From assembly GCA_026985075.1 (NCBI GenBank), contig JALSQX010000071.1, positions 10,601 through 74,600 of the forward strand: a stretch of 64,000 bases of DNA, read 5' to 3'. The position numbers were made by a program, and so were the translations under genes. Below the pieces are notes generated by a model. It was given only the letters and a program-made list of their open reading frames with translations. It was not told the DNA's origin and searched no databases. This stretch comes from Blastocatellia bacterium. Its GTDB lineage: Bacteria > Acidobacteriota > Blastocatellia > HR10 > J050. Shown piece after piece: positions 2-31,108 of this stretch. Numbering within the stretch: the first letter of the stretch is position 1; each line of letters starts with the position of its first letter.

Positions 2-640
2 CCCCGTTTCGACGCTGCCGGTAAAACAGACAGCGTCGACGAGTTCGATGAGAGCAGCTCCCGTCTCTCCGGCTCCCGCGATGACCGCCAGCACGTCATG
101 GAGTGGCGGGACGGCCTCGATACTCCGTGAGAGTGGTTCAATGAATCGCGGCGTCACCTCGCTCGGCTTGATGACCACAGCGCATCCGGCCAACAGAGCG
201 GGGATGGCATCAATGAGGGAGAGGAGGAGAGGGAAATTCCAGGGACTGATCACGCCCACCAGAGGATAGGGAATCACCTCTCCCCTCACCCTGACGAACG
301 GAAGGGAGGTGGGCTGTTCGTCTCCCGCCGAGAGCAGGGCGGGCGCCTCGCGCGCCCATCGACGGAGACCGGCGATGATCAGGTTGAATTCGACTTCCGA
401 TTCCGCTCGTCGCCCCGTATCGGTGGTGAGCGCGGCAATGAGAGGCTCCCGCTCGGCCAGCAGCGCTTCCTGCCACCGCTCCAGCGCTGCGATTCGCCGA
501 TCCAATCCTCCCTTCCACCAGTGGACCTGCTCTCGTCGAAGCCGGGCGCACAGATCGGCGAGTTCATCGCGTTCCGGGGGGGTAATCCAGTAGTCGCGCT
601 GGCCCGTTCGTGGATTGCGCACGCCGATCCGCTCGCCCAT
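2..640 (-). CDS. Aldehyde dehydrogenase family protein (3' part outside window)
   Basis: Manual translation from ATG 640: MGERIGVRNPRTG...GVISPWNFP...AGCAVVIKPSEVTP...VCFTGSVETG, which are ALDH motifs. Missing from the ORF track because it runs off the edge. Confidence 0.92.
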   Translation of the reverse strand, partial: MGERIGVRNPRTGQRDYWITPPERDELADLCARLRREQVHWWKGGLDRRIAALERWQEALLAEREPLIAALTTDTGRRAESEVEFNLIIAGLRRWAREAPALLSAGDEQPTSLPFVRVRGEVIPYPLVGVISPWNFPLLLSLIDAIPALLAGCAVVIKPSEVTPRFIEPLSRSIEAVPPLHDVLAVIAGAGETGAALIELVDAVCFTGSVETG

Positions 641-643
641 GAC

Positions 644-1687
644 TCAAATCACCCCCGCGTCTATTAATCGGCGAATGGTCTCCTGCTGTGTCCGGAGGAA
701 ATGGGAACGCTCGGGCACTTTATCGAGAAGCGTGTTGGCCGGATAAAACGTATGCTGGCGGTAACTCTCAGCGTATGCCTCGAAGCGCTGTCGGGAGAGC
801 ACATTGTCCATCCCCGGTCGCCGACGATATCGCCGAAGAGCGTCCAGATGGATCTCGGCATGCGCGACGATGCTCTCGCCCGGTCCCGCTTCGGCCAACA
901 CTTGCCCTCGATAGTCAACGATCATCGAGCCACCATCGGAAGACCCGCCGGGGATATCGATATCCTCCAGGCCAGCCGTGTTCGCCGAGACAACGTAGAC
1001 GAGGTTTTCGATGGCTCGGGCCACTTTGGCGACAGCCTTGGGCGTGGGGCGCGGGCTGGCAACCTCACAGGTGGAATGAACGAGGATCTCAGCTCCCCGC
1101 ATGGCCAGACAGCGAGCGATCTCTGGATAGAGGATCTCCTCGGACGCCACGGCCGCCAAGCGGCCGATCTCGGTTGACGCCACGGGGAAGACGCCATCCA
1201 ATCCGTAAATATCCAGATAGCGATCCCACACGTCATGAGGCGTGGGCGCGTACATGGAATTCAATCGTCGATAGCGTAAAATCACGTCGCCGGCGGGATC
1301 GATGATGAAGCTCGTCTGAAAATATAACCCCGGAAAGTGAGCGTCCAGCTCATAGGCATTACCCGCCAGGAAGATATTGTTTTCCCGAGCAATCTCGCCC
1401 AGCAGTTCATACTCTGGACCATCGGCCTCCAGGCAAGCTTTATGAGCCCATTCCTCGATGCTCTCGCCCATAGGAAAACCGGTGAGGAAATATTCTGGCA
1501 GTACGACCAATCGCGTCTCTTTCCCCAGCCAAGCGATACTGGCCGCCACCTGCCGCCGCAATCGATCGATCGTCGCGCGCATCCGGGCTCGAGCATCCTC
1601 GCGATGTTGCGCTCGATTCACGGCACGACAGACGATCTGCAGCGCGAGCGCTCGAAAAGCACGCGTTTCATTTTCATTCTCCGTCAT
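644..1687 (-). CDS. Nitrilase/carbon-nitrogen hydrolase family protein (non-canonical triad)
   Basis: VVLPEYFLTG, AVASEEILYPEIARCLAMRGAEIL, ARAIENLVYVVSAN, GGSMIVDYRG. Start taken at MTENE. Confidence 0.9.
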   Translation of the reverse strand: MTENENETRAFRALALQIVCRAVNRAQHREDARARMRATIDRLRRQVAASIAWLGKETRLVVLPEYFLTGFPMGESIEEWAHKACLEADGPEYELLGEIARENNIFLAGNAYELDAHFPGLYFQTSFIIDPAGDVILRYRRLNSMYAPTPHDVWDRYLDIYGLDGVFPVASTEIGRLAAVASEEILYPEIARCLAMRGAEILVHSTCEVASPRPTPKAVAKVARAIENLVYVVSANTAGLEDIDIPGGSSDGGSMIVDYRGQVLAEAGPGESIVAHAEIHLDALRRYRRRPGMDNVLSRQRFEAYAESYRQHTFYPANTLLDKVPERSHFLRTQQETIRRLIDAGVI

Positions 1688-1728
1688 CGTTCCCTCTCCC
1701 GCATCACTGATCGGGCCTCCCCGTGAGG

Positions 1729-2154
1729 TCAACCCGATGTCAACCAATCACCGATGCCATACGGATCAGGGGCCGGCTGAGAGAAGTGCTCGTGCACGAT
1801 GCGCCACTCATTCGCCTCATTTCGAGTGAGTACGAAGGTGCCCCGGAAGCGAACCATTCGCTCCTCGCCCTTCACTCGGACCTTCACCTCGACGATGCCC
1901 GCGATCCAGCCCATATCCCCGGAGACTTGACTGTACGGCCCCTCGACCCAACGACAGGAAATCATATCCAGCGGCGCATTCACGAAGGCTCGCCAGCCGC
2001 GGGCGATGCGGTCGAATCCGATCGTTGACCAACGCGGCCCCTCGACGAAGACGTACGTCGTATCCGACTCGGCATATCGACCAATGATATCGTCGATGCG
2101 CTTTTCGATAACCGCTTGGAAGTGTTGTTCGGAGATGTCCTTGAGTGCTGTCAT
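1729..2154 (-). CDS. SnoaL/NTF2-like (YybH-type) protein
   Basis: C-terminal RGTFVL...WRIVHEHFSQP typical of SnoaL_3 proteins. Confidence 0.85.
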   Translation of the reverse strand: MTALKDISEQHFQAVIEKRIDDIIGRYAESDTTYVFVEGPRWSTIGFDRIARGWRAFVNAPLDMISCRWVEGPYSQVSGDMGWIAGIVEVKVRVKGEERMVRFRGTFVLTRNEANEWRIVHEHFSQPAPDPYGIGDWLTSG

Positions 2155-2219
2155 CAATCACGTCCTCCGGCCAGATCAAGGGGGGCTCACTGAGGGGGAG
2201 CGCATCCATCCCGTGATGG

Positions 2220-3515
2220 TCATCGCAACGACAGAGGTTCGACGCGAGGGATCATCCACATGACGATCGCCGCTGAGAGGATGTGCATCACCGAGACGAT
2301 GACGAAGACCGGCGTGTAGGATACATGATCGACGAACCATCCCACCAGAGGCTGAAACAACATTCCCCCGAAGCTCCCCGCCGCTCCTGACACCCCCCAC
2401 ACCGACGCCACATGCCGCGAGGCGAACAAGTCGGCGGGGAGCGTGAACAACGAAGACGATTTCACCTGAATGGCGAACATGGCCACAGCGATCACCATCA
2501 AGGCCCAGAAGGCCGATCTCGCCGAGACGGCGAATAACACCAGAGGCACCAGCAGAGCACCTATCCAGATGACCAGTTTCCTGGAAGCATTCAATGACCA
2601 TCCACGAGCGATCAATCGACCTCCCAACCATCCTCCACTCAAGCTCCCCACGTCAGCCGCCAAGAACGGGATCCAGGCCAACAACCCGATCTCGGCGAGA
2701 TTGAAGCCGCGTTCATCGGACAGATATTTAGGCAACCAAAACACAAAGAAGTAGAACGCACCATCGCAAACGAACCGAGCGAGCATCACCCCCCAAACTT
2801 CTTTATAGCGGAAGTAGTCAACCCACCGCATCCCATCGTTGGTGGACGACGGCTGGTACCGCTCCCTGAGAATGAGCTCGGCTTCCTCCGGCGTAATACG
2901 GGGATGACATTCCGGACTCCTATAGAGTTTCTGCCAACCCACGAGCCAGAGGAGCCCGATGACGCCCGTGGCCACAAAGGCTAACCGCCACCCTACGGTG
3001 AGAACGAGCGTGGCGACCAGAGGGGGAGCGATAATCGCGCCCAGCCCAGGGCCCACATTCAAAATACCGACGGCCATCGACCGTTCTGATCGGGGGAACC
3101 ACTCGGAAATCGCCTTGAGCGATGCCGGATAATTCCCCGCCTCTCCGAGACCGAGAAGAAAACGGAACAGCGAGAAACTCCACACTCCCGTTCCCACGGC
3201 GTGAAGCATATTGGCCAGCGACCACCATACGACGGCCAATGAAAATCCTCGTTTCGTTCCCATCCGGTCGATGAGGCGACCAGCCAGAATCTGCATGAGG
3301 GCATAAGCGAACAGAAATGATGACACGATCCAGGAGTAGTCGCTCGCCGTGAAGCCGAACTCCTCACTGAGCACGGGCGCGGCCACCGAGATGGCCTGGC
3401 GGTCAATATAGTTCACCGTCGTGGCCAGAAAGAGTAAACCGATGATGATCCATCGGAGGTGGCGAATCGGTCGGATCGATTGCCCCACGCTCAGATCGGA
3501 TGAGAGTGTCCCCAT
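2220..3515 (-). CDS. MFS transporter, ExuT/ACS-like
   Basis: NYIDRQ, GRLIDRMGTKRG, RFLLGLGEAGNYP, EWFPRSERS; about 12 hydrophobic segments. Confidence 0.92.
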   Translation of the reverse strand: MGTLSSDLSVGQSIRPIRHLRWIIIGLLFLATTVNYIDRQAISVAAPVLSEEFGFTASDYSWIVSSFLFAYALMQILAGRLIDRMGTKRGFSLAVVWWSLANMLHAVGTGVWSFSLFRFLLGLGEAGNYPASLKAISEWFPRSERSMAVGILNVGPGLGAIIAPPLVATLVLTVGWRLAFVATGVIGLLWLVGWQKLYRSPECHPRITPEEAELILRERYQPSSTNDGMRWVDYFRYKEVWGVMLARFVCDGAFYFFVFWLPKYLSDERGFNLAEIGLLAWIPFLAADVGSLSGGWLGGRLIARGWSLNASRKLVIWIGALLVPLVLFAVSARSAFWALMVIAVAMFAIQVKSSSLFTLPADLFASRHVASVWGVSGAAGSFGGMLFQPLVGWFVDHVSYTPVFVIVSVMHILSAAIVMWMIPRVEPLSLR

Positions 3516-3581: not shown

Positions 3582-4736
3582 TCACCATCTGGCTTTCTTC
3601 TTGAAATACTTCAATGCGTCTTCCAAGCTCTCCGGGAGATATTCGAGAAAGGCATTAGGGGGATAACGGGATTGATACTGCTCCATGACGTGAGCATACA
3701 ACGCCGTGTGCACATCGGGAATGCGATGGTGCTTCCGGAAGGCGGCCAGCGGGAGACGAGCCGTGATGATCGTCTCATGAGGTGATGCGGCCTGAGCGAT
3801 GACCTCGCCACGAGGACCGAAGATCGCGCTTCCCCCTGTTCCACCCGGGTCCTCCACGAAATGAGGGTTGCCCGGCGACAGGGCATTATTGACGGCCATC
3901 CCATACACCCCGTTTGTCCGACAGATCACGATCATATCGGCGCGCCCAAATCCGCCCGTCGACGTTCGAATGATGATCTCGGCCCCTTTGATGGCCAGCG
4001 CGCGATAGAGTTCCGGTTCCCACTGAACTGAGGACACGGCAATATTGCCAATATCGGTACGGGCCACGGGGAGTACGGCATCCCATCCGTACAACTCGAC
4101 ATATCGATCTAATACGTCGTACACGGTCGTGGTGAACAACTCGAAGCCGGGAAAGACGCCATGTATATTACGAGCCTTCCACTGCTTGGAGACGATCTTC
4201 CCGTCAGGACCGATGATCACCGAGATGCTCATGATATGACGCGGCCAGTCTTTGTCTTTGGCGTAGGTGCCAAACGTGATATAGCAGTTGTACTGCTTGG
4301 CCTTCTCTCCGATGGCCTCGGCCTCGGCGCCAGGGAGCTCCAGAGCGAGGTTGAGGATCTCTTTTCGCGTCCACCGATCCCAACCCGTGATGGGGAACTC
4401 ATGAAAAGCGATGAGATCCTTTCGCCCGCCGAAGTACTGCGCTTTGTCAATGAGATCGAGCATGTGCTTGAGGTTCTCCCGCTTCCCCGGCGCCGGATTT
4501 CGTCCATCTACCGCTCGAACGCGAGATTGGACGACGCTGACGGTGATCTCCTCGCGGCGCAAGGGAACGACGTCATACGTCCCATCGTGCTGAGGCGCAG
4601 ATGGTGCGGATCTCGACGCGAATGCCCGGCCCGCCTCAGGGACGACTCCTACGGCGACCGCGCCAGCCGTAAACCGAAGAAACTCGCGGCGCGACGGACC
4701 TCGTCGCTTCCGCGGCCATGTCCTCCGTGTCATCAT
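3582..4736 (-). CDS. Tat-exported nitrilase-family protein
   Basis: SRREFL twin-arginine signal; FHEFPITG, WKARN, EPELYRALAIKGAEII, GGSAIFGPRG. Confidence 0.85.
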   Translation of the reverse strand: MMTRRTWPRKRRGPSRREFLRFTAGAVAVGVVPEAGRAFASRSAPSAPQHDGTYDVVPLRREEITVSVVQSRVRAVDGRNPAPGKRENLKHMLDLIDKAQYFGGRKDLIAFHEFPITGWDRWTRKEILNLALELPGAEAEAIGEKAKQYNCYITFGTYAKDKDWPRHIMSISVIIGPDGKIVSKQWKARNIHGVFPGFELFTTTVYDVLDRYVELYGWDAVLPVARTDIGNIAVSSVQWEPELYRALAIKGAEIIIRTSTGGFGRADMIVICRTNGVYGMAVNNALSPGNPHFVEDPGGTGGSAIFGPRGEVIAQAASPHETIITARLPLAAFRKHHRIPDVHTALYAHVMEQYQSRYPPNAFLEYLPESLEDALKYFKKKARW

Positions 4737-4816
4737 CGCTCTCCGGGCCGACCGACCGCTGTTCGATGGTTCAGAGGAATGGTCGTCGGCGCTTCTTGAA
4801 GGCGTCTCATCGACCA

Positions 4817-5392
4817 TCACCGAAGCAACGGTGTAATGATCGCTTCGAACTCTTCGTATGTCTTCCGACCGACGAGTTTCTTCCTCACCTCACCCGTTCG
4901 ATCGATGAGATAGGTGGTGGGTAGAATTCCCTCGAACCCCTCATCCACAACGCCCACGAAACCGTCCAGGTCGGTCTCCTTTCGGAGATACACGGAGAAG
5001 CTAGGAGCCCGGTCCCGCACATAGGGTCGGACCTTCGTCTCCAGCTCATCGGGTTCATCCACCGACACGGCGATGATCGTCAATCCGCGATCTCGGTACG
5101 CCTCCTGCAATTTGGAGAGGTCGGGGAATTCCTTGAGACAGGGAACGCACCACGTCGCCCAGAAATTCAACAAAATGACGCGACCGCGATAGTGATGAAG
5201 GAGTTGCCGCAACTGCTCTGCACTGATGAGCTCGACCGACTTGGGATTGAGCAGATGCGACGGGAGAGAAGCCCTCGCCGCCTGAGAGAGACCCCTTCTC
5301 CCACCGTCAACCATCGCGGGTATGGCGATGAAGAACGCGATCATCCAACCAACGAGGCATCGACCCGTTAGATGCTTTTTCTCTCTGTCCAT
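4817..5392 (-). CDS. TlpA-family thiol-disulfide oxidoreductase
   Basis: LLNFWATWCVPCLKEFP, LPTTYLIDR; N-terminal membrane anchor. Confidence 0.92.
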   Translation of the reverse strand: MDREKKHLTGRCLVGWMIAFFIAIPAMVDGGRRGLSQAARASLPSHLLNPKSVELISAEQLRQLLHHYRGRVILLNFWATWCVPCLKEFPDLSKLQEAYRDRGLTIIAVSVDEPDELETKVRPYVRDRAPSFSVYLRKETDLDGFVGVVDEGFEGILPTTYLIDRTGEVRKKLVGRKTYEEFEAIITPLLR

Positions 5393-5510: not shown

Positions 5511-6857
5511 TTACTTTTTGGCGATGAGCGGCTCCAGGGCTTGAAACAGAATTTTGTTGTCCTGCTGCCAAGCGACAAAAACTGTCCCATCGGACGCAAC
5601 AGCGACAGTGGGAAACATCGACGCCGTCTCTCCTGATCCTAACGCCCGAATAGGCCCAAAGGTTTTTCCGTGATCGTAGGAGATGCGAAGGTAGGCTCGA
5701 CGTGGGCCCGAGACCTTGGCATCCCACACAACATACACGCCGCCCTTCGGCCCGACGGCGAGTTGTGGATGGTCGGAGATCTTGGCTCCCGGATGAATGG
5801 CTCGTGGTTCGGCGAACGTCTTGCCGCCGTCCTCGGAGACAGTGAAATACACGCCCGGAGGCGTTTCCGCCGCCGTGAACCAAGCCGCATAGACCCATTT
5901 CTCCTGATCCGTGGCCAGGATCGCCGGTTTCAGAGGACATCCATTGATCATCCACTTCTTGGAAGTCAACCGTACCGGTGCGCTGAACGTTTTTCCTCCG
6001 TCATCAGATCTCAGCACGACGCTGTTACGGAACCCCTCCGGATAAACATGCCGCATGGAGAGGAACAGCGTCCCTCGAGGCGAGAAAGCCGCGTCCAACT
6101 GACAACACGGGCAGGCCGTGTCGCGACTGATGAGTCGATCGGGCTCGAACGTCTTTCCTCGGTCCCAAGAGACGGCTCCATAAATGGAACCATTCGCTCC
6201 CGGGGCGTTCATATGTCGCGTATCGATCCAAAATGCGTGCACCGATCCGTCTGGCCCCACGGCCATTGTTCCGAAGCAATGCGCCTCGCTCAGCCCGCCT
6301 CCGACAATCTTGCTCTGGTCTTCCTTCAAGATCGTATTCAATGTGCGCTCGCGCTCGAAAGTGCGCCCCCCATCAGTGGAGCGGGTGTATCGGGCATCAG
6401 TGGCATCTTTATCCGCCGTGGCGGTGGCTCGATTACCGGAGAAGAACACATGAATGACGCCCGAGTCATCGACCACGATCTTGGGTCGACTGGTGCTGAA
6501 TCCCCAAACCGATCCCTCCACGCTATTCACGCGGATGGGCTCAGTGAACGTGCGCCCTCCATCGGTGGAGCGCGCAAAATACAGATTGGTGTAGATGCGA
6601 TGGGTGTGAGTCTCCCCCGCGGGAATCTTGGCCTGCACGGGTAGCTTCTCCACCCAGATGAGGTTGATGCTTCCATCGGGACCAAGGGCCATGGTGGGCG
6701 TACTGGCTTTGTTCTCCGGTGCGCTGAGCACGATGACCCGTGATTTCTCCCCTTGATCGGGCGCGCCGGGATGTCCTCCCGCGGCAACCAGGGTGATTCC
6801 TCCCGTTGCTAATGCCAAACTGAACGCGTAGGCGAATTTCACCATGCCTTTATTCAT
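5511..6857 (-). CDS. Secreted BNR/Asp-box (sialidase-fold) repeat protein with CPCC motif
   Basis: Repeated SxDGGxTF Asp-boxes, signal peptide, ACPCCQ and WMINGCP. Confidence 0.85.
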   Translation of the reverse strand: MNKGMVKFAYAFSLALATGGITLVAAGGHPGAPDQGEKSRVIVLSAPENKASTPTMALGPDGSINLIWVEKLPVQAKIPAGETHTHRIYTNLYFARSTDGGRTFTEPIRVNSVEGSVWGFSTSRPKIVVDDSGVIHVFFSGNRATATADKDATDARYTRSTDGGRTFERERTLNTILKEDQSKIVGGGLSEAHCFGTMAVGPDGSVHAFWIDTRHMNAPGANGSIYGAVSWDRGKTFEPDRLISRDTACPCCQLDAAFSPRGTLFLSMRHVYPEGFRNSVVLRSDDGGKTFSAPVRLTSKKWMINGCPLKPAILATDQEKWVYAAWFTAAETPPGVYFTVSEDGGKTFAEPRAIHPGAKISDHPQLAVGPKGGVYVVWDAKVSGPRRAYLRISYDHGKTFGPIRALGSGETASMFPTVAVASDGTVFVAWQQDNKILFQALEPLIAKK

Positions 6858-7091: not shown

Positions 7092-8555
7092 TCACCGAGA
7101 CGCTCGTTCGCCGTGCAATCCAATGGGTCGTTTGATGTACTGGCCGATTCCCGGCTTGGCCACGATTTGACCCTCAGAGAAGACGCGCCGACCACGCAAT
7201 ACAGTATGGACTGGCCATCCATGGAGTTCCATGCCTTCGAAAGGAGTGAAGTCCTGTGCCGAATGAAGGATCTCCGGCGTCACCGATTGTCGCTTCTCCA
7301 TATCGATGATGGCGAAATCGGCATCAGCGCCGACCATGAGCGTCCCTTTCTTCGGATACAAGCCAAAATTGATCGCCGGATTGGCGGCCACGAGTTCGGC
7401 CACTCGCGTGAGCGAGAGTCCACGTTTATGGCTACCCTCTGACAGGAGCACCGGATAGAGCAGCGATGATCCTCCAAATCCAGGAAGCGCCGTCCAGAGG
7501 TCCTCGCCTTTATTCTCCTCAAAGCAACAGGCATGATCGCTGACCACGCTATCGACTTCCCCATCGAGGATCCCCTGCCATAGGAAATCGGCATCCGCTC
7601 GCGTTCGAATCGGGGGATTGACTTTCCCTTTGATTCCACCCGCCGTATCATAAGTCAGCGCCAGATGGTGGAGCGTCGTCTCCAGCTTGATATCCAGATG
7701 CGGATATCGGCGTCGCGCCTCGATGCCCGACTGGAGAGCCGCCTGACTGCTCAGATGGAGAAGATTGAGCGGGCAACCGGTAGCGTCAGCCAGGACGACG
7801 GCTTCCCGGATGGAGAGACTCTCAGTGAGCGGAGGACGCGCCCGACTATAGGCTTCCAGGCCTCTCACCCCCTCGGTCTTCACTTTTTCGATGAAGACGC
7901 GAATGAGTTCCGGGTTCTCACAGTGAAGACTCAGCGCGATACGTCCAGCCGCCCGATGCCTTCGGGCGACCTCGGCCACGCGCTCCATCAACAAGTAGAG
8001 ATGGCCGAGATCGTAATTCTCGGCCATGGTATACTCCGCCCCCCGAGTGGAATCGGCAGCCAGCGTGAGGCCCTTGTAGAACATGTAGAACTTGAACGAC
8101 CCCACGCCATATTGCTCGACGAGCATGCTCACCTCATCGAGCTGCTGGCCGGTCATGATCGCAATATGGTAGCCATAGTCGGTGTAGAAATGCCCCGAGG
8201 ACAGCTCCAGGACTTCGGGAAATATCTGCTCATAAGGGCCCGACTTGTTCAAATAATGGTGACCGGTCCGGAAGTAGCTCAAGATCGTGGTCACGCCGCC
8301 CACTGCCGAGGACGCCGATTCACTCTCGGCATCCTCCGATAATGGCCGATAAATGCCCACGTGATAGTGCGAATCCACGGCTCCCGGAAAAACGAATTTC
8401 CCCGAGGCATCGAGGACGTCATCTCCCTCAGTGGCGGCAATGAGATCGCTCACATTGGCGATACGCCCATCCCGGACGCCGAGATCAGCACGTATCACAC
8501 CAATGTAAGGGATCACTAAAGTCCCATTTTTGACGACGAGATCATACCGAGACAT
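7092..8555 (-). CDS. Cyclic amidohydrolase (dihydroorotase/allantoinase/hydantoinase-like)
   Basis: PGAVDSHYH, AVGGVTT, SFKFYM, HCEN, HLSS, KVNPPIR, SDHA, KGTLMVGADAD. Confidence 0.9.
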   Translation of the reverse strand: MSRYDLVVKNGTLVIPYIGVIRADLGVRDGRIANVSDLIAATEGDDVLDASGKFVFPGAVDSHYHVGIYRPLSEDAESESASSAVGGVTTILSYFRTGHHYLNKSGPYEQIFPEVLELSSGHFYTDYGYHIAIMTGQQLDEVSMLVEQYGVGSFKFYMFYKGLTLAADSTRGAEYTMAENYDLGHLYLLMERVAEVARRHRAAGRIALSLHCENPELIRVFIEKVKTEGVRGLEAYSRARPPLTESLSIREAVVLADATGCPLNLLHLSSQAALQSGIEARRRYPHLDIKLETTLHHLALTYDTAGGIKGKVNPPIRTRADADFLWQGILDGEVDSVVSDHACCFEENKGEDLWTALPGFGGSSLLYPVLLSEGSHKRGLSLTRVAELVAANPAINFGLYPKKGTLMVGADADFAIIDMEKRQSVTPEILHSAQDFTPFEGMELHGWPVHTVLRGRRVFSEGQIVAKPGIGQYIKRPIGLHGERASR

Positions 8556-20562: not shown

Positions 20563-20676
20563 ACTCACCTCCAATGATGAATCGACTTGGAGAGGACTTA
20601 TATACCCGCCCTTCGCACACAGAGCCGGAGTGCGGGCGAGCAGTGAAGGAATGGTGTTCATCGACGTTGGGCGCCC

Positions 20677-23621: not shown

Positions 23622-23690
23622 GGCTCCCTCCACAATGGAATGTAGGCAAAAAAACGCGCCGGCGCAACCACATCCGGAGAGGCACACGAA

Positions 23691-26417
23691 CTAAAAGAAT
23701 CGGACGTTAATCCCCAGCGTGAAGCTGCGCCCCCGTGCTGGCGCGAATTGAAATTGCTCTCGGTAAAACTTATTACCCAGATTTTCTAAGCCCACTGTGA
23801 GGCCCACAGTATAGTGTTCAGTGTGGAAGTTATAACCGCCGCGGAGCGTGTGAACGCTGAATCCATACAGGCCGAACAGATCCTGCGGAATGAGGAACGG
23901 AGAGTCGGCGAGCAGAGGCGAAACACGGTTGACGTGGGTTTGACTCCGGACATTATAGTCCCACCATAAGCGATTGGCATGATCGTTCCAACGGAGACCC
24001 ACGACGGACTTGAAGGGCGTGATATTATCCGCCGGTTGATGGGAGACGTCGACGACGCCAATGCCTTCGCGCGTTCTCAGCACCGCTTCACCGTTCAAGA
24101 TCTCGCCGCGCAGATAGGAGAGATTGCCATACCATGTGAACGTCGTTCCTCGCAAGGGGAGCGGATACTCCCAACTGGCTTCTACTCCCTGAATGCGAAG
24201 CCGTCGGAAGAAGTTCCCCGCCTGGGAGATGGGTTGGGCGTCTCCGAACTCTGGATCGTTATTGGACACGGTGGTGATCTCCGTGGAAATGAAGTTCATG
24301 AAGGTATTGTTGAAATAGCTCAGTTCGCCAGCGAAACGAGAGGTTCTCACCTTGACGCCAACATCCACGTTGACGCCCGTCTCCGGTTTGACCTTGGTGT
24401 TGGGAACAATGGCTCCAATGGTCGCCGGCCCAAAGAAGAACAATTCTTCCAGATTGGGATGACGGAAACTCCGGCCAATACGGGCCGTGATGCTCATCAC
24501 CGGAGTGGGACGAAAGACGAAGCCCAGACTTCCCGTCGTGGCCGTCCGTTTCAAAGTGATCCCAGACGGCGCGGGGAATGCCGAAGGATCTAACGGAGGA
24601 TCGCTCACCGGAATGCGAGGCTCATAGCCGGGAGTGGGAACCGTCTCGACGCTGATGCGATCCACACGAATGCTGCCCAGGATACGCATCCAACGGAAGA
24701 TGTCAAACTCGTCTTCGGCGAAGAAGGCCACATTCTGGAAATTGGAGATGGGAACCCGCTGAGGGTGACCAACCACCCCCGTGACCACGGGGGCATTGAG
24801 CGGGAAGAACGCTCCCGTCTCTCGATTGGCCGCGCCAATAATGGTCACATCGACCAGGGTGAACCGCGAGTCGCGACTATGATCCCGGAAGTAATCGACG
24901 CCGAGCGTTAACATGTTTTTCAGCCCCAACAGAAGCCCCACATTGGCGTCAAACCCGAACGATTTCACATCCTGACGCGTTCGACTGAGAATGTCTACCC
25001 GCGTCAGCGTGTCAAAATTCGGAATATCGGACTCGCTCACCCCCCGTACCGAGATATCGTTTTGCAACATCCGGTCCTGATCTTGCCAATATCCACCGGC
25101 AGAGACACGGGCGAGCCACGACGCGAGTCCCGTTCCCTCATACCGGAGACTCACCTTATCCAGGTCGCTGAACGGTAGATTGATGATCTGGAAGAAGAAG
25201 GGCTGTTTGAAGTCGGGAAAGCCGGTCAGCGCCGTCCGTCGTTGGGTCAACTTCAGGCGCAAGGACTGCCCTTCCACCGGGAAGAACCGAGCCGTGAGAC
25301 TGAGATTGCTCCCATGCGATTGCGAGTTGGCGATTTCAGACGAGGTCCGCGTGAATGGCTCGTTGAACGGATCGGGAACCACGCCGAAGAACACCTGCTG
25401 GATGACGTGACCAGGAGGCGGCTTCAAAACATCCGGATTCGTCCTCGGCGTATTGCTGAACACCGTCACCGGGATGACGACTGGCTCGCTCGTCTCGTTG
25501 AACGGTTTGCCCGCATGATAATTGGGATAGCGCTCCAGCATGACCGATCCGCGAACGGCGAACTTGCGTCCCGCTACATCCAATTTGGCCGTGCCCCGTC
25601 GTCCCGTCTCATTGGAACTGAAGAACCCGTTCACACTCCCCCCGATGTGGAGCCCATCATCCACCGCCTCGGGCATATCGGTGATGATGTTGATCGTGCC
25701 CGAGAGAGCGTCGGTCCCATAGAGAGCAGATCCGGCACCATGAACGACTTCCACAGCCTTGATCTGGCTGGGATCGACTAACCCAATCTCCGGTCCAGCC
25801 CGGTCGGTCGCCACGCGCGATGTGTTGAGCCGCTCTCCATCCACCATGAGAATGAGTCGCGTGGAATCTAATCCCCGCAATCGAGGCCGAACCAGATAGG
25901 GGCCGCTATTGACGGGCGTCAGGCTGGGCAATCGGAGGAGAGCGTCTCCCGTGGTAGTGGGATTCTCTCGCTGGAGGAGTTCCTCGGTCATCACCGCCGT
26001 TCGCGCCGGCACTTCCAGCACATCGCGTTCGCCACGACTGGCCGTCACCGTCAGGACTTCAGCAATGCCTCCCAGACTCAACTCGAAGTTCACCTGTAAG
26101 ACCTCGCCGGGTTCAGCGATGGTGACGCTCCGGAAAGCGTCCGAAAATCCCGGGCTCTGTACCTTAATGCGGTATATCCCAATCGATAAGCTGGGAAACT
26201 CATACTCCCCTTCTCCATTGGTGACTGTTGCCCGCTCGGCTTCGGTGGCTACATTACGGATGGTGACCGTGGCTCCCGCCAACGCCGCACCCGTCTGATC
26301 AGTGACCCGACCCACCACTCGTCCAGTCAGCTGAGCCCAGACCGGCTGACTGAGCACGCTCAATGAACAGAAGAGCCCAGCCACCATCACTTTCATGCGC
26401 GTTGAGTTCCGATCCAT
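23691..26417 (-). CDS. TonB-dependent receptor (paralog of 15875-18520)
   Basis: Shares VNSGPYLVRPRLRGLDSTRL and ENLGNKFYREQFQFAPARGRSF exactly with the paralog. Confidence 0.95.
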   Translation of the reverse strand: MDRNSTRMKVMVAGLFCSLSVLSQPVWAQLTGRVVGRVTDQTGAALAGATVTIRNVATEAERATVTNGEGEYEFPSLSIGIYRIKVQSPGFSDAFRSVTIAEPGEVLQVNFELSLGGIAEVLTVTASRGERDVLEVPARTAVMTEELLQRENPTTTGDALLRLPSLTPVNSGPYLVRPRLRGLDSTRLILMVDGERLNTSRVATDRAGPEIGLVDPSQIKAVEVVHGAGSALYGTDALSGTINIITDMPEAVDDGLHIGGSVNGFFSSNETGRRGTAKLDVAGRKFAVRGSVMLERYPNYHAGKPFNETSEPVVIPVTVFSNTPRTNPDVLKPPPGHVIQQVFFGVVPDPFNEPFTRTSSEIANSQSHGSNLSLTARFFPVEGQSLRLKLTQRRTALTGFPDFKQPFFFQIINLPFSDLDKVSLRYEGTGLASWLARVSAGGYWQDQDRMLQNDISVRGVSESDIPNFDTLTRVDILSRTRQDVKSFGFDANVGLLLGLKNMLTLGVDYFRDHSRDSRFTLVDVTIIGAANRETGAFFPLNAPVVTGVVGHPQRVPISNFQNVAFFAEDEFDIFRWMRILGSIRVDRISVETVPTPGYEPRIPVSDPPLDPSAFPAPSGITLKRTATTGSLGFVFRPTPVMSITARIGRSFRHPNLEELFFFGPATIGAIVPNTKVKPETGVNVDVGVKVRTSRFAGELSYFNNTFMNFISTEITTVSNNDPEFGDAQPISQAGNFFRRLRIQGVEASWEYPLPLRGTTFTWYGNLSYLRGEILNGEAVLRTREGIGVVDVSHQPADNITPFKSVVGLRWNDHANRLWWDYNVRSQTHVNRVSPLLADSPFLIPQDLFGLYGFSVHTLRGGYNFHTEHYTVGLTVGLENLGNKFYREQFQFAPARGRSFTLGINVRFF

Positions 26418-26695: not shown

Positions 26696-27490
26696 TCATC
26701 TCGGCGTTTTCTCCGATGGGTTCTCCACCGACGTGATATGGTATCGCCATCCGCGCGAGTGACCAATGAGGCTGTGGGTGAGTTGAATCTTGAACCGGTA
26801 GAGATCGCTTCTGTAGAATCCCCTCACGAACTGAACGGGCCGGCCATGCACATCACAGAAGGTCGTCTCAATGAGTAACAGGGGCGCTCCCACTTTGGTT
26901 GAAAGCAACGCGCCGATGGACGCGTCGGCCAGTGCTCCGGTGATGAGGGCACTGGCTTCTCCCAGAGAGATTCTTCCTCTCTCCTCCAACAGCCGCAGAA
27001 GTGGCAAGGAGAGATCCTCGCCGATCAACCGGTTGCCGATGTCCTCGGGCAGATAGCTCTCCGTGTAAGCATACGGAATCTCCTGGGCATATCTGATTTT
27101 CTTGAGGCGCCACACCCGATCACCCTGGCTGATGTGCAAAGGCTGCGCCTCTTTGGCCGTGGCCTGGATGAATCGGGCATCGAGGATCTCAGTCTTGGTC
27201 TCAACCGAGCTACTCAACCCGTCGATGAAGCCGGTCAGTCGGATAGTCTCGTCCGACGGGGGGATCTGCTTCACAAATGTCCCTCGTCCGGCCACGCGCT
27301 CCAGGAGGCCCTCTTTCACCAGAGCGGCCAGCGCCTGTCTGACCGTTGTGCGACTCACCCCATACTGCTCGATGAGCTCGTTCTCGGTTGGCAGCTTCTC
27401 ACCCCGAGATAACTCGCCCGAGCGGATTTTCTCCCTGAGGATATTCTCTAGCTGGTAGTAGAGTGGAATCTCTCGATGTTGAAACTCCAT
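26696..27490 (-). CDS. GntR (HutC/UTRA) regulator (paralog of 15051-15812)
   Basis: PLYYQLENILREKI, LPTE, YGVSRTTVRQAL. Confidence 0.95.
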   Translation of the reverse strand: MEFQHREIPLYYQLENILREKIRSGELSRGEKLPTENELIEQYGVSRTTVRQALAALVKEGLLERVAGRGTFVKQIPPSDETIRLTGFIDGLSSSVETKTEILDARFIQATAKEAQPLHISQGDRVWRLKKIRYAQEIPYAYTESYLPEDIGNRLIGEDLSLPLLRLLEERGRISLGEASALITGALADASIGALLSTKVGAPLLLIETTFCDVHGRPVQFVRGFYRSDLYRFKIQLTHSLIGHSRGWRYHITSVENPSEKTPR

Positions 27491-27525
27491 AACCGACCTC
27501 AGCTCGGTTTCATCAGGATGAGATG

Positions 27526-27707: not shown

Positions 27708-28244
27708 CTATGGAGCGACACATGGCGAGTCGGCTCGTTCCAGAACGAATGTCCCCAAGTTCACGTCATACCCGACATTGGGGTCGAAGTCGCTGGCCGA
27801 CGCATTGGTGTTATCCCCAATGATGATGGCTGTTCCTTCAATGCGATTGGGGGTCATGAAATCGCCACGAAGCACAATGGTCGACGGCGTCCGACTGCTG
27901 GGGACCTCAAAAGTGAGGCTCACCCCGGTAGCATCGGCACCTGATAACGGCGTGCCGCGCCACGTCATCCCACTGGCCCGACCGAGCGGGCCAAACTGGC
28001 AGGGCCCGATAACCAACCCGCCACCAAAATTGTCATTGGGCTGAATAGCCAGATCCAGAAATCCCGGCGAGGCCTCCGCCACCACTCCATAATTGAAGGT
28101 CGGCGCGCCAGGGCCAAAGTTTAATGTCAGGTACCATGTCCCCTTGAAGTCGAAACTCACCTGCGACTGAGATACGGGTGCGGTGAGCAGGGACATGACC
28201 AAGAGGCTCGCGACAGCGAGAATGCGGGTTTTTTTGCTCATCAT
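27708..28244 (-). CDS. Secreted hypothetical protein
   Basis: RBS AAGGAGG, signal peptide MMSKKTRILAVASLL..., beta-rich sequence. Confidence 0.7.
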   Translation of the reverse strand: MMSKKTRILAVASLLVMSLLTAPVSQSQVSFDFKGTWYLTLNFGPGAPTFNYGVVAEASPGFLDLAIQPNDNFGGGLVIGPCQFGPLGRASGMTWRGTPLSGADATGVSLTFEVPSSRTPSTIVLRGDFMTPNRIEGTAIIIGDNTNASASDFDPNVGYDVNLGTFVLERADSPCVAP

Positions 28245-28463
28245 CTCCTCCTTACTTGCGGTAGTTTGAACTCCATGGAGTCTCGGCAATGGTTGCCTTG
28301 CCAAGGGTTACCGGGCTCATGAGAAATGCACCACCTCAGATGAAGTGGTGCCCCCAGCATACTATATCTACAGGTGTGGCATCAAGGTCCCGACCGAACT
28401 CCGTTGCCGCGGTCATTCCGTGCTCGTCACTCACGGGGCAGGCTTCTACCGTGGGTGGCCTTG

Positions 28464-29027
28464 TCACTGAGCGAATTCTCGAACGAAGTTGACCATGGCC
28501 TTGATCTGCTCATCATTCAACTTCTCATCCCACGCCGGCATCGCCCCCCGGCCGTTCTTGATCGTCTCGGCCAACTGGGCGTTGGTCCTGCTCTGTTGCC
28601 AGCTTGCATCAGAGAAATCAGGGACGTTCAGGGCCGCTGCCGCCGGTCCCCCCTTGCCGTCCTCCCCATGACAGGCGGCACAGTTCTCCACGTAAAAGGC
28701 CTTGGCATCGAATTCAACGGCCGCGGCATCCGACTCGGCGTTCTCTCCACCGGCGAAGAACTGAGGATAAGCCTGCCGTAACTCGGATGTGAACCGGTAG
28801 CCCTGGTCAGCGAATGCTTCCCCAAATTCCGTCAGCGGGCCGAAGCCGTCCTGCCGGACGTGACATATCGTGCATCGCCCCTTCAACTCCGCTTTGGCAT
28901 ACGGACTGGCCTCGTACCACTCCATGAATCGAGGCATGGCCCGAAGAACCGGACAGTGAAAGAGCCCATCGATCAGGCAAAGTGAAACTGCACAGAACAC
29001 CAACTTAATACCCCTCATCTTACGCAT
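28464..29027 (-). CDS. c-type cytochrome with two CxxCH motifs
   Basis: CTICH and CAACH; GAMPAW distal Met; signal peptide. Confidence 0.88.
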   Translation of the reverse strand: MRKMRGIKLVFCAVSLCLIDGLFHCPVLRAMPRFMEWYEASPYAKAELKGRCTICHVRQDGFGPLTEFGEAFADQGYRFTSELRQAYPQFFAGGENAESDAAAVEFDAKAFYVENCAACHGEDGKGGPAAAALNVPDFSDASWQQSRTNAQLAETIKNGRGAMPAWDEKLNDEQIKAMVNFVREFAQ

Positions 29028-29095
29028 ATATTCCCTCCTAATTGGCCCTGGGCTGAGGCCGGCGGCCCGACCAACCTCGAGCCCAGGGTCCACCA

Positions 29096-31108
29096 TCACT
29101 TCAAGTATTCCAGTCGGGTGATTTTCATTTCCACCCGCGCCGGTTGGCCGGGCATCGTGGAGAGATGGAGCCTGCCTTTCGGCACCCAGTAGGGACCTTT
29201 CTTCACATACTCATCGACGAACTCGTCCTTGCCGACGACTTGCTTGGTCCCTTTCTTATAGTACGTCACGCCGTACTCGGTGGCGATATACCGCCCATCC
29301 TCCACTAGGAAGCTTTTCTTGTTGTGGATGGTGAAATCGAACCGGCCAATATTCCGACTGAGGTATTTTATCATCTTATCAGCGACGATGTAGCTGGAAC
29401 CCATCGCGTCGCCCTCAACATAAATCTCTTGCCCTTCTGGCCGTTTCTTGCCCAGCTTGAATTTCGCCTTGTCCGGGCCATACCAGTCATCGAACGGCTT
29501 ACGGGGCTGACGATGGGTCACAAACTGGCTCCATTCGGTGTGGGCAAGCACCCGGGCTTTGGGATCGGGAAGGTCGACCGTGATCTTCAAGTTCGGATCA
29601 CACCGCATGTGACCCTGGAGAGGTTCTCCTCCCTCGATGCTGATCGTAAAATCGGCTTCGAAGCCGCGGAATCCCAGGTCCTTGTCCCATACGTACCGGT
29701 TCAAGCTCGCTTCCTTGAAAATGCGGCGGGCCTCCGGATCTTCTTCAGCCGCGCGCAATTCGGCGACCATCCGATCCCACAGGTCAGCCGCCTCCTTGGC
29801 CGAGGCGACGCGATGACCGTTAATCAGCGCCTCCTTCAACTCTCCATGGGAAGCGATGGCCAGCTGACGCGTCCGCTTGTTGAAGTTCTCATAATCATAG
29901 GCCACAATACCCACGCCGCGGGCCATATAATAGGTGCTGCGGACGGAGTTCGTCCCCGTCTCCCAGTTGACACATACGCGGAGGCACTTTTCGAATCGCC
30001 CCATCGGCGTCGTCACCGGCTGAAACCCATCCAAGATGGTCGTGAAGTGAACGAAGTACTTCCCGAGATCCTGGCTATACTTGTACTCGCGGCCCAACAC
30101 CAAGTCATCTCGACCGAGTAACATTGGCGGATCGTAGTTGAACTCAACGCCCTGAGCCCGCATACCTCGTTCGTGCGAAGAGACAATGCGCAGCCCAGTT
30201 CGTCGATCGAGCATGTAGTATTGGTACTCCTCACCGGTATCGTCGACGAGCTTGAACGCCGCACCAGCGTCGAAGAATTTCGTCCCTTCAAAGCGCCGGG
30301 TCCGCTCAAACCGCTTCACGGTCCCATTGGGAAGGCGGAATTCCCAATCATAGGTCCATTTATCGCCCTGGTGGAATGGGAAATACTCCGCAATCTTCAC
30401 CGTCTGAGCCGCATCGCCGCCAATCTTTTTTCCACCCACTGTTCCATGGAGCAGTTCTCGCTCGACGCGAAGCGTCTGGTTGGCGATGGGAGAGTAGATC
30501 TCATGAATCTCTTTGACCACGCCCACTCCCTTAGCCAAAAACGACGTGATCGAATGCGTCGTCCCGGACGGCCGTTCGAATCGAAATGTCGCCTTCAGGC
30601 AATCCTTGAATGCGCCCGCCGGGACTTCCACGCTCTCGAATCCGTAGTACGCCGCTTCGGAGAAGACCGGCTTGCCTTTCGAGGGAGCATGAGGAACGCG
30701 ATACACCTTCCCCGGCTCATATGTCACATTGAGAAAAGTGAAGGGCGGGTTATAGGTTACATCCCCATAGCCCGCATTGTGTCCATAAATGACCAGACGC
30801 TGTTGATCAACCGACACCAGGTAGTAGGCGCCCGTGTCATCAACGAGCTTCTTAGCCCTGATCCGTCCATCGAGCCGAGCTTCCCCTTTGACCGTCTGCG
30901 TCCGCAAGCGATAGAATACCCGGCCATCAGCCCGGAACTCCTTTTCCTGGTACGTCCAACTATTCTTTTCCTGCAATGGATAATAATCAGCCACATCCAC
31001 TTCGGGCTGATTCCCATCGGTCCACTGAGCCGCAAATGCCGGCGTGCCAGCACACACCACCAGCACCAGCGTGAACAGCGTGAATCTGAAGTTGTGTCTC
31101 GTCGTCAT
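29096..31108 (-). CDS. Secreted protein with duplicated N-terminal domain plus DUF3386-like domain (paralog of 22215-23621)
   Basis: Two YxPxxxxxxWTY...xPxGxFxxCL...xAxGVGxV repeats; ARRIFKEASLNRYVW..GFRGF. Confidence 0.7.
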   Translation of the reverse strand: MTTRHNFRFTLFTLVLVVCAGTPAFAAQWTDGNQPEVDVADYYPLQEKNSWTYQEKEFRADGRVFYRLRTQTVKGEARLDGRIRAKKLVDDTGAYYLVSVDQQRLVIYGHNAGYGDVTYNPPFTFLNVTYEPGKVYRVPHAPSKGKPVFSEAAYYGFESVEVPAGAFKDCLKATFRFERPSGTTHSITSFLAKGVGVVKEIHEIYSPIANQTLRVERELLHGTVGGKKIGGDAAQTVKIAEYFPFHQGDKWTYDWEFRLPNGTVKRFERTRRFEGTKFFDAGAAFKLVDDTGEEYQYYMLDRRTGLRIVSSHERGMRAQGVEFNYDPPMLLGRDDLVLGREYKYSQDLGKYFVHFTTILDGFQPVTTPMGRFEKCLRVCVNWETGTNSVRSTYYMARGVGIVAYDYENFNKRTRQLAIASHGELKEALINGHRVASAKEAADLWDRMVAELRAAEEDPEARRIFKEASLNRYVWDKDLGFRGFEADFTISIEGGEPLQGHMRCDPNLKITVDLPDPKARVLAHTEWSQFVTHRQPRKPFDDWYGPDKAKFKLGKKRPEGQEIYVEGDAMGSSYIVADKMIKYLSRNIGRFDFTIHNKKSFLVEDGRYIATEYGVTYYKKGTKQVVGKDEFVDEYVKKGPYWVPKGRLHLSTMPGQPARVEMKITRLEYLK

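Follow-up and report, generated by a model that had tools for sequence, protein, structure and literature searches.

Three separately conserved units in a catabolic island of a Blastocatellia bacterium, a tentative case for the use of pyrrole-pigment fragments

The subject of this report is a row of co-oriented genes in a stretch of 64,000 nucleotides (the window; positions 10,601 to 74,600 of contig JALSQX010000071.1, assembly GCA_026985075.1) from a Blastocatellia bacterium. The host is an acidobacterium, probably from soil, with a genome of 5.2 Mb that is 98.7% complete. Within the window, the minus strand carries every credible open reading frame (ORF) between position 35317 and base 2, and the row extends at least 10.6 kb further to the left, where it reaches the contig start. 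We scanned the window proteins with Pfam and NCBIfam models against the family cut-offs and matched selected enzymes to PDB sequences. The genes form an island of familiar folds, whose core of undescribed chemistry is shared across phyla; three units, each conserved on its own, make up this mosaic (Table 1). Unit A combines a PrpD-like protein, an HD-domain protein, a citryl-CoA lyase and both subunits of an ADP-forming acyl-CoA ligase. Unit B has a nitrilase-fold protein (CNhyd1), an aldehyde dehydrogenase (ALDH) and a DUF3598 protein as its core trio, joined by a cyclic amidohydrolase. Unit C comprises two TonB-dependent receptors with their uptake block and periplasmic proteins, and was seen in the family of the host only. 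The reading that we prefer, at a probability of roughly 0.4, is that of a catabolic island not previously described, whose most likely substrates are fragments of pyrrole pigments.

An earlier inspection of the letters alone (the sequence-only reading) had proposed an island for tetrapyrrole or maleimide degradation between positions 2 and 31108. Every gene family that it listed is recovered by Pfam and NCBIfam, all on the minus strand. Its list was nevertheless incomplete, as it omitted the HD and SnoaL proteins, two DUF3386/DUF3108-like proteins and the three island ORFs of the window that match no family in either collection. The co-orientation was correctly seen and runs further left than proposed; the right end has to be moved, because the last gene stops at 31234. 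From the first GntR gene to the Amidohydro_2 gene at the contig end, intergenic spacing ranges from overlaps to about 230 nt.

We propose that the cyclic amidohydrolase is the ring-opening enzyme of the island. Its closest PDB match is the D-hydantoinase 1nfg (205.8 bits), with which all metal ligands (HxH, the carbamylatable Lys, two His and an Asp) align, and it stays under every NCBIfam equivalog cut-off, the best being allantoinase with 262 against 631. CNhyd1 and a second nitrilase-fold protein, CNhyd2, both have the CN_hydrolase fold and both depart from the Glu-Lys-Cys triad. In CNhyd1 the alignment to PDB entries places Glu85-Arg161-Ser202 at the triad positions, and the motifs LPEYF, YRRLNS and ASEEILYPE are invariant in 8/8 orthologues. 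Its start is likely at residue 21, where the ESM Atlas record begins; the Atlas clusters call it 'nitrilase-related' only, and it has 5601 relatives at E<=1e-60. In CNhyd2 the alignment to 3ivz shows Ser where the Cys and Asn where the Lys would be expected; the protein is predicted to be periplasmic because of its N-terminal twin-arginine (Tat) leader, SRREFLRF. No CNhyd2 orthologue was present among the loci fetched with PrpD-like or nitrilase-fold queries or from relatives. The NCBIfam model nearest to the ALDH is succinic semialdehyde dehydrogenase (365.5 bits, cut-off 521).

The DUF3598 protein (Pfam DUF3598_N, 40.6 bits versus 22) has the predicted structure of a barrel (pLDDT 93.7). Superposed on DUF3598 chains, the model reaches Z 18.3 with 5yvf (rmsd 2.6, 138 residues aligned) and Z 16.2 with 2o62 (rmsd 3.3, 132 aligned). 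The haem nitrobindins 3wjb and 3ia8 follow with Z 14.8 and 14.2, the bilin lyases CpeS, CpeT and CpcT with 11.9, 10.8 and 9.1, and the bilirubin-binding UnaG with 11.3. Such likeness of a predicted fold to tetrapyrrole-binding barrels does not show a ligand.

In unit A, Pfam places the PrpD-like protein in the MmgE/PrpD superfamily (PF03972 251.1 and PF19305 149.7 bits versus 32.1), as the sequence-only reading had it. The narrower assignment as a true PrpD does not hold, since the protein fails all PrpD equivalogs (NF042438 110.1 versus 950, NF006943 91.6 versus 575, TIGR02330 74.2 versus 458). Among PDB entries it scores 128 bits with IDS-epimerase, about 100 with cis-aconitate decarboxylase and 55-61 with true PrpD. 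We propose that it acts as a (methyl)homocitrate or cis-homoaconitate hydro-lyase. The host genome has this single PrpD-family gene and two ordinary citrate synthases. In the HD protein the His-Asp doublet is replaced by Ala-Asp (LLADVGK), several other His are invariant in the alignment, and no PDB sequence matches it.

The remaining proteins of unit A had been read as a citryl-CoA ligase and lyase pair, and here the two halves fared differently. By its sequence the lyase is a clear member of the citryl-CoA lyase family: it passes the family cut-off (Table 1) and matches the Hydrogenobacter enzyme 6hxp over its full length (195 bits, residues 5-257). The synthetase half is not borne out, as the ligase beta subunit is nearer to succinyl-CoA synthetase beta (3ufx, 238.8 bits) than to CcsA (6hxq, 118.9 bits). 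Both subunits stay under the succinyl-CoA-synthetase equivalog cut-offs (alpha 294 versus 336, beta 268.6 versus 370), and beta carries a C-terminal extension of about 150 aa. The Pfam Citrate_bind hit of 23.4 bits is under its cut-off.

The propellers, the DUF3386 proteins, the 198-aa protein, the cytochrome c and the redoxin carry signal or anchor sequences; with these and the Tat leaders, a large part of the island should work outside the cytoplasm. The 198-aa protein gave a poor structure model (pLDDT 55, from 4 sequences). In the left flank, the molybdoenzyme begins with the Tat motif TRRRFLKG. Against its subfamily models, the beta subunit scores 528.9 versus 480.7, alpha 858.8 versus 984.75 and the chaperone 91.4 versus 152.3, and no gamma subunit was recognised. 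The AMP-ligase further left is an AMP-forming acyl-CoA ligase, and the Amidohydro_2 gene is interrupted by the contig end.

We searched each protein in 401 genomes of the phylum, taking E<=1e-100 as orthologue level. The DUF3386b type occurs in two of them, the host and a genome of the same family (G291); in the latter the trio of DUF3386b, cytochrome c and 198-aa protein recurs away from the receptor block, with 46-71% identity. The order in G291 is receptor 2, DUF3386a, GntR, PD40-SnoaL, receptor 1, 198-aa protein and then the ligase genes, at 48-74% identity; as the receptor block leads into the ligase genes, units C and A are syntenic within the family. The first GntR regulator has a 65% homologue between the receptors of G291 and 50-56% homologues beside the amidohydrolase in three further genomes (G171, G271, G211), and the BNR propeller at 5511-6857 has 56% homologues in G291 and in locus L002. 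The molybdoenzyme, located inside unit B here, is missing from unit B of G291 and is thus not part of its core.

To the right of the island, genes for an HTH protein, ThiD and ETF-ubiquinone oxidoreductase (ETF-QO) occupy 31844-35317. ThiD and ETF-QO recur in G291 with 59% and 69% identity, at about 6.6 kb on the upstream side of the receptor block, which shows that the island keeps its right border within the family. Neither Rfam nor tRNA scanning of the whole window gave a match. Further right, at 46280-48871, an ORF of 863 aa with internal repeats coincides with the most GC-rich stretch of the window (0.65) and with its strongest GC skew (0.26); its product is possibly secreted, because it has a hydrophobic N-terminal segment.

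Table 1. Genes of the island by window position, followed by those of the left flank in order away from the window
Gene product	Position	Strand	Assignment	Part of island
ALDH, N-terminal 213 of 479 aa	2-640, cut by window start	-	Pfam Aldedh	unit B
CNhyd1, nitrilase-fold	644-1747	-	Pfam CN_hydrolase, 113 bits	unit B
SnoaL_3/NTF2-like protein	1729-2157	-	Pfam, 43.5 bits	unit B
MFS1, anion:cation-symporter-type importer	2220-3515	-	MFS_1, 207 bits; TIGR00893, 283.9 versus cut-off 395	
CNhyd2, second nitrilase-fold	3582-4820	-	Pfam, 73.4 bits	
TlpA/ResA-type membrane-anchored thiol-disulfide oxidoreductase	4817-5392	-	AhpC-TSA/Redoxin; NF002854, 88.4 bits, below cut-off	
BNR-repeat propeller with signal peptide	5511-6857	-	Pfam BNR_2	
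Cyclic amidohydrolase (hydantoinase/dihydropyrimidinase/allantoinase superfamily)	7092-8555	-	metal site intact	
MmgE/PrpD-family protein (PrpD-like)	8622-10016	-	Pfam N and C domains	unit A
HD-domain protein	10082-10681	-	Pfam HD, 23 bits	unit A
Citryl-CoA lyase, short citrate-synthase-like	10681-11475	-	NF004866, 279.2 bits versus 245	unit A
ADP-forming acyl-CoA ligase alpha (SucD-like)	11545-12453	-	Pfam CoA_binding/Ligase_CoA	unit A
ADP-forming acyl-CoA ligase beta (SucC-like), 533 aa	12472-14073	-	Pfam ATP-grasp_2	unit A
Short-chain dehydrogenase (SDR)	14216-14968	-	Pfam adh_short_C2, 226 bits	
GntR/HutC-type regulator 1 (GntR1)	15051-15812	-	Pfam GntR and UTRA	
TonB-dependent receptor 1, CarboxypepD_reg N-terminus	15875-18520	-	Pfam	unit C
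BNR_4-like protein	18720-19862	-	Pfam	uptake block
192-aa ORF without family	20153-20731	-		uptake block
PD40 propeller fused to SnoaL	20677-22098	-	Pfam	uptake block
DUF3108-like/DUF3386 protein	22215-23687	-	Pfam	uptake block
TonB-dependent receptor 2, CarboxypepD_reg N-terminus	23691-26417	-	Pfam	uptake block
GntR/HutC regulator 2	26696-27490	-	Pfam	
Secreted 198-aa protein	27708-28304	-	signal/anchor sequence	
Cytochrome c	28464-29099	-	Pfam	
DUF3108-like/DUF3386 protein, 712 aa	29096-31234	-	Pfam	
DUF3598 protein, after the rest of ALDH	left of window	-		
MFS2	left of window	-		
258-aa unrecognised ORF, upstream of the molybdoenzyme genes	left of window	-		
Molybdoenzyme alpha, NarJ-like chaperone, beta (type II DMSO-reductase family)	contig positions 2277-7622, left of window	-		
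AMP-ligase	left of window	-		
Amidohydro_2 protein	left of window	-		

At least 593 relatives of the PrpD-like protein are found when each species is represented by one genome; they belong to Acidobacteriota, Ignavibacteria, Zixibacteria, Gemmatimonadota, Calditrichota and others. Their best 80 loci, many of them short, were searched by tblastn with 33 island proteins. The HD gene is found in 52/80, the lyase in 12/80, the ligase subunits in 10-11/80 and the SDR in 8/80, with ligase and lyase linked in 10-12 of them. TonB receptors at 27-31% identity occur in 7-8/80, ALDH and MFS1 in three loci each, and BNR1, SnoaL, MFS2 and AMP-ligase in one each; the nitrilase-fold proteins, DUF3386, cytochrome c, molybdoenzyme, GntR and remaining island proteins were found in 0/80. 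In the class of the host, unit A consists of ligase beta, ligase alpha, lyase, HD and PrpD-like genes beside a TonB receptor, and the locus of one such genome (G394) also contains LeuCD-type genes. MFS1 has 63% copies inside unit A of L006 and L011 and a 67% copy in unit B of G291.

The flanks of unit A include an amine oxidase in six acidobacterial loci, a CpeT/CpcT-domain protein in five and DUF1838 in eight. The CpeT/CpcT-domain protein, of the bilin-lyase family, was identified with 115.8 bits at L009:4038-5462 and has homologues in L006, L012, L014 and L022; it stands with a flavin amine oxidase on the receptor side of unit A, and both flanks were seen in Pyrinomonadaceae-type genomes.

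The commonest partner of the HD/PrpD-like pair is a fused LeuCD-type, homoaconitase-like protein (52/80), followed by Iso_dh (34/80) and CitE-ACP (33/80). Two of the LeuCD-type neighbours exceed the cut-off of homoaconitase TIGR00139 (834 and 703 bits versus 530), and the Iso_dh neighbours are nearest to homoisocitrate dehydrogenase, below its cut-off. The homoaconitase-like partner in 52 of the 80 loci therefore points to C7 acids of the homocitrate type, and the guess of a 'homo' tricarboxylate made from the letters alone fits with it.

The direction of unit A deserves a comment. Pairs of a citrate-synthase-fold and a PrpD-family protein are used in maleidride and tautomycin-type biosynthesis, and lyase and hydro-lyase reactions are reversible in principle, so that the two enzymes could be imagined to run toward a dialkylmaleic-type product. 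However, two TonB receptors, two MFS importers, HutC-type repressors, ALDH, amidohydrolases and an ATP-using ligase make up a catabolic signature. Synthase, tailoring and export genes were not seen in the island, and the PrpD-like family is widespread beside homoaconitase and dehydrogenase genes. We regard a biosynthetic role as highly improbable.

Unit B has its own distribution. CNhyd1 orthologues (49-73% identity) are present in 10/401 genomes, host counted, and PrpD-like orthologues in 37/401, with both in five. Among the 37 other genomes of the same class, all four PrpD-like holders are among the seven CNhyd1 holders; as these genomes are kin, the co-occurrence is a hint and not a statistical test. 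In relatives, unit B contains the amidohydrolase (45-68% identity), GntR (50-56%), Amidohydro_2 (71-79%) and AMP-ligase (54-79%), as well as DUF3598, ALDH, MFS and SnoaL (52-65%). Further genes found there encode the A subunit of an ATP-dependent hydantoinase/oxoprolinase (HyuA), CoA-transferase III, a DUF4437 cupin and DUF1838. In G101 a separate PrpD-family paralogue (L083:7428-8843, 29% identical to that of the window) lies beside CoA-transferase III. The trio also occurs as ALDH-DUF3598-CNhyd1 in a record of the actinomycete Nonomuraea, together with an ABC transporter and a flavin monooxygenase and without a gene for red chlorophyll catabolite reductase (RCCR).

The HyuA-type subunits of unit B lie at L085:17132-19216, L088:12512-14584, L083:10807-12873 and L092:434-2485. 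None of them has a HyuB beside it, and in L085 HyuA is directly upstream of the nitrilase-fold gene lacking the Cys, which raises the question whether the nitrilase-fold protein might be a partner of HyuA.

An alignment of eight CNhyd1 orthologues was used to collect metagenome loci, and for the best 80 of at least 510 relatives 774 ORFs were clustered and named by Pfam and NCBIfam. CNhyd1 itself was recovered in 69/80 loci, ALDH in 36/80 (57-66% identity, downstream of the nitrilase-fold gene) and DUF3598 in 20/80. They are followed by a Zn-ADH-type reductase (15/80), LeuC-like and MFS proteins (12/80 each), and amidohydrolase, HMG-CoA-lyase-like and LeuD-like proteins (10/80 each). CoA-transferase III is found in 7/80, HyuA and RCC_reductase in 6/80 each, DUF4437 and DUF1838 in 5/80 each, and HyuB and HpcH aldolase in 4/80 each. 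When the view is restricted to the 35 loci of at least 12 kb, LeuC-like genes are present in 11, HMG-CoA-lyase-like genes in seven, and HpcH and CoA-transferase III in four each. HMG-CoA-lyase-like or HpcH genes together occur in nine, a hydratase or a lyase in 15, both in five, and a ring-opener (amidohydrolase or HyuA) in 14. The LeuC-type hydratases exceed the cut-offs of the homoaconitate-hydratase family and of the LeuD/DmdB family (185 versus 109 bits for the latter).

By analogy, the LeuCD-type hydratases, CoA-transferases and HMG-CoA-lyase-like genes near the trio might be functional counterparts of unit A. The recurring logic would then begin with a cyclic amide that is opened and deprived of its nitrogen; an aldehyde would be oxidised, and an unsaturated acid would take up water, be activated with CoA and finally be cleaved. 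Other lineages put different hydratase, CoA and lyase genes beside the trio, which suggests that unit B depends on a partner of this kind. The scheme of ring opening, hydration, CoA activation and C-C cleavage put forward in the sequence-only reading thus recurs beside the same trio with other enzyme families.

We consider it possible, yet somewhat unlikely, that units A and B are independent and merely neighbours. Unit A would then act on a homocitrate-type acid that arises otherwise, for example a tricarboxylate taken up from outside or 2-oxoadipate produced in lysine breakdown, unit B on an unrelated lactam or imide, and their adjacency would stem from island assembly in one lineage. Unit B occurs without A in five genomes (G101, G171, G251, G198, G063), and unit A without B in 32 of the 37 holders of the PrpD-like gene. 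In three genomes (G271, G211 and G394) they are found on separate contigs and have a TonB receptor each, so that separate substrates fit as well. In other phyla unit A is accompanied by homoaconitase, Iso_dh and CitE-ACP. Since copies of the PrpD-like protein that are 52-75% identical adjoin homoaconitase, it may simply act on homocitrate of different origin. On the other hand, no homoaconitase above the cut-off is present in the host genome (best 183 versus 530 bits), and unit A is here without its usual feeder. Amidohydrolase and PrpD-like genes are immediate neighbours in two genomes, that of the window and that of L002, where the amidohydrolase (78% identity) comes directly after. Further, all four PrpD-like holders of the class hold CNhyd1 too, and elsewhere the trio has another hydratase, CoA-activating enzyme and lyase at its side.

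The observation that connects the trio with pigments comes from the metagenome loci. In six of the 80, an RCC_reductase gene (PF06405, 71.8 bits versus cut-off 24.9) directly precedes CNhyd1 and ALDH in this order; DUF3598 is next in five, and the sixth contig breaks off shortly afterwards. The sequence-only reading had placed, without verification, nitrilase-fold proteins lacking the Cys, together with ALDH, near RCCR genes of cyanobacteria, and this is borne out. Intergenic gaps in these loci measure -13 to 60 nt; identity among the RCCR proteins is only 56-86%. Their named relatives come from Nostoc, Calothrix, Cylindrospermum, Tolypothrix, Scytonema and similar genera. Many named relatives of CNhyd1 are cyanobacterial as well, and Scytonema sp. 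PMC 1069.18 is among the relatives of both proteins; judged by these relatives, the six loci are apparently cyanobacterial. They also hold an amidohydrolase 42-44% identical to that of the window, an Asp/Asn-hydroxylase-like oxygenase, a curcumin-reductase-like reductase, SnoaL_2, NmrA, DUF4437, HpcH, RidA, a beta-keto-acid cleavage enzyme and, in some cases, a Rieske oxygenase.

RCCR is the only pathway-specific neighbour found for the trio, and this bears on another explanation, in which all units share one substrate that is not derived from a tetrapyrrole. Such a compound could be another N-heterocyclic or amide-linked polycarboxylate, for example a pyridine-carboxylate degraded via a glutarimide-type intermediate, a 5-substituted hydantoin or dihydropyrimidine, or a citrate- or 2-oxoglutarate-amide siderophore with cyclic imide or lactam forms. 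Hydantoinases and dihydropyrimidinases are the enzymes that the amidohydrolase resembles most, the regulators are HutC-like, and TonB receptors are the classic siderophore route. Amine oxidases, as the breakdown of a polyamine-citrate siderophore would need, flank unit A in the six acidobacterial loci. AMP-ligase, Amidohydro_2 and molybdoenzyme recall pathways for N-heteroaromatic acids, and the host genome lacks both RCCR and haem oxygenase. Nevertheless, the receptors stay under the cut-offs of siderophore-type receptors and the amidohydrolase under the hydantoin, pyrimidine and allantoin equivalogs, neither nitrilase-fold protein can be a canonical N-carbamoylase, and the molybdoenzyme does not belong to the core. 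A shared substrate of this kind therefore seems unlikely to us.

If we return to the pigment reading, we infer that the substrate most probably stems from oxidised chlorophyll, haem or bilin, which would supply maleimides such as hematinic acid, pyrrolinones and phyllobilin fragments. A possible model is as follows. The two TonB receptors of unit C would import a molecule too large for porins. In the periplasm it might be processed by the DUF3386/DUF3108-like proteins, the propellers, cytochrome c, the TlpA-type redoxin, the Tat-exported nitrilase-fold protein and the molybdoenzyme, and MFS carriers would bring acidic fragments into the cytoplasm. There, the metal-dependent amidohydrolase of unit B would open the five-membered imide or lactam ring of a maleimide or pyrrolinone. 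The Ser-type nitrilase-fold protein, the succinate-semialdehyde-dehydrogenase-like ALDH and the nitrobindin-like DUF3598 protein would release ammonia and oxidise an aldehyde, with a 2-methyl-3-substituted maleate as presumed product. The PrpD-like protein might then hydrate the propionate-bearing (methyl-)cis-homoaconitate to (methyl)homocitrate, the succinyl-CoA-synthetase-like ligase would form its CoA thioester, and the citryl-CoA lyase would split this into propionyl- or acetyl-CoA and 2-oxoglutarate.

Two more specific versions of this reading are much less secure. The exact route through hematinic acid is doubtful in our opinion. Similarly doubtful is the version in which the periplasmic step is an oxidative fragmentation of a linear tetrapyrrole and the island represents a complete undescribed route for mineralising linear-tetrapyrrole debris (phyllobilins, bilins and oxidation products), with the same core acting behind RCCR in cyanobacteria; the RCCR homologues there would thereby gain their first physiological context. 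Both leaves and sediments have been reported to contain hematinic acid and maleimides (PMC7318184). Among the sources consulted, we found no paper describing bacterial catabolism of hematinic acid or maleimides; likewise, no paper was found on phyllobilin degradation by soil bacteria or on a citryl-CoA lyase together with PrpD. No literature was found under the name DUF3386, and that on DUF3598 concerns, judging by its titles, plants and corals.

Besides the distribution of units A and B already described, a number of results weigh against the pigment reading. Firstly, the adjacency to RCCR is limited to one group, being seen in the six of 80 loci and in 0/185 other loci examined. The neighbourhood check suggested by the sequence-only reading thus gave RCCR beside homologues and neither RCCR nor canonical haem oxygenase in the host genome. 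A Pfam search of that genome found no RCCR; taken alone this search is weak, because it gave a signal in 0/14 control genomes. A profile hidden Markov model (HMM) of the six RCCR proteins, run over the six-frame translated genome, found none either. Secondly, both receptors stay below the cut-off of the haem-receptor subfamily TIGR01785 (171.3 and 186.9 bits versus 316.85), and a profile comparison of DUF3598 with CpcT-domain proteins revealed no similarity (probability 0.3%). Thirdly, the nitrilase-fold proteins had been given the deamidation step; the Cys and Lys required for it are missing in both, so they may not be hydrolases at all. Fourthly, the island had been taken for a single unit, and it is not conserved as one: A, B and C are conserved apart, A and B adjoin only in this lineage, and the amidohydrolase occurs in just 1/80 PrpD-like loci. 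No PrpD-like orthologue, lyase, ligase or HD gene was found in the 80 CNhyd1 metagenome loci, and 13 of the 35 longer ones carry none of the partner sets. Finally, the route of the sequence-only reading does not account for all genes, as AMP-ligase, Amidohydro_2, ALDH, SDR, HD, SnoaL and the molybdoenzyme have no role in it. ALDH apart, these genes are left without an assigned role, as are the unit C proteins of unknown function.

The turnover of chlorophyll and haem is very large, and it is not yet clear which organisms in soil and water are the final consumers of the ring fragments. The present analysis offers a concrete gene set, namely the cross-phylum trio of Ser-type nitrilase-fold protein, ALDH and DUF3598 barrel plus the cyclic amidohydrolase. 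In apparently cyanobacterial loci the trio stands directly behind RCCR, and in heterotrophs it is joined to TonB uptake and acid-splitting units. If the pigment reading is true, several domains of unknown function would acquire functions, nitrilase-fold chemistry would be extended to proteins without the canonical Cys, and the widespread PrpD-like/HD pair would receive a substrate class. If it is wrong, the island is still a clear example of modular assembly of catabolic units.

Several known systems invite comparison. The first is CcsAB and Ccl of Hydrogenobacter thermophilus (6hxq, 6hxp), which likewise combine a two-subunit ADP-forming ligase with a short lyase of citrate-synthase fold. The island beta subunit differs by its greater likeness to succinyl-CoA synthetase and its extra tail of about 150 aa. 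Further, the island set sits with a PrpD-family and an HD protein in a catabolic context, without a reverse TCA cycle, and its acid is probably C7 rather than citrate. The host has two normal citrate synthases. With the 2-methylcitrate cycle (PrpC, PrpD, AcnB, PrpB) the island shares an MmgE/PrpD fold acting on a citrate-like alcohol or alkene and a retro-Claisen cleavage into acyl-CoA and a 2-oxoacid. It has neither PrpB nor PrpC, however, its protein fails the PrpD cut-offs, the pathway is proposed to run the other way round, and in other genomes the partner belongs to the homoaconitase family.

Closest to unit A is the uncharacterised operon of HD, PrpD-like, homoaconitase, HICDH-like and citrate-lyase-like genes found in Acidobacteriota, Gemmatimonadota, Zixibacteria, Ignavibacteria and others, on which we found no paper. 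The PrpD-like protein (52-75% identity) and the HD protein are common to both. The island lacks homoaconitase, dehydrogenase and CitDEF, uses ligase and citryl-CoA lyase instead, and has its unit A joined to TonB receptors and unit B.

Unit B resembles D-hydantoinase or dihydropyrimidinase systems with N-carbamoylase, in which a binuclear-metal amidohydrolase, here with all ligands, is followed by a nitrilase-fold protein. The latter carries Glu-Arg-Ser or Ser in the island and not Glu-Lys-Cys, no equivalog cut-off is reached, and in many trio loci an ATP-dependent HyuA/HyuB replaces the amidohydrolase. Comparable hydrolysis of cyclic imides is performed by bacterial imidase and half-amidase.

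The likeness to plant chlorophyll breakdown by PAO and RCCR consists in the RCCR-family gene that heads the cyanobacterial unit B, whereas the host genome of the island has no RCCR. A preprint on RCCR homologues with focus on chlorophyll breakdown in prokaryotes stops at RCCR; its text, supplements aside, mentions neither maleimide nor nitrilase nor gene clusters, and the steps after RCCR are thus not described in it (10.64898/2026.03.19.712979).

The overall logic of the proposed route has a parallel on another ring. In the nicotinate fermentation of Eubacterium barkeri, an enamidase opens the N-heterocycle, a LeuCD-type dimethylmaleate hydratase acts on the unsaturated acid, and dimethylmalate lyase yields propionate and a 2-oxoacid. 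The island would differ by the ring, by a PrpD-family protein in place of LeuCD and by CoA-dependent cleavage. In other bacteria, subunits of the LeuD/DmdB family accompany the trio.

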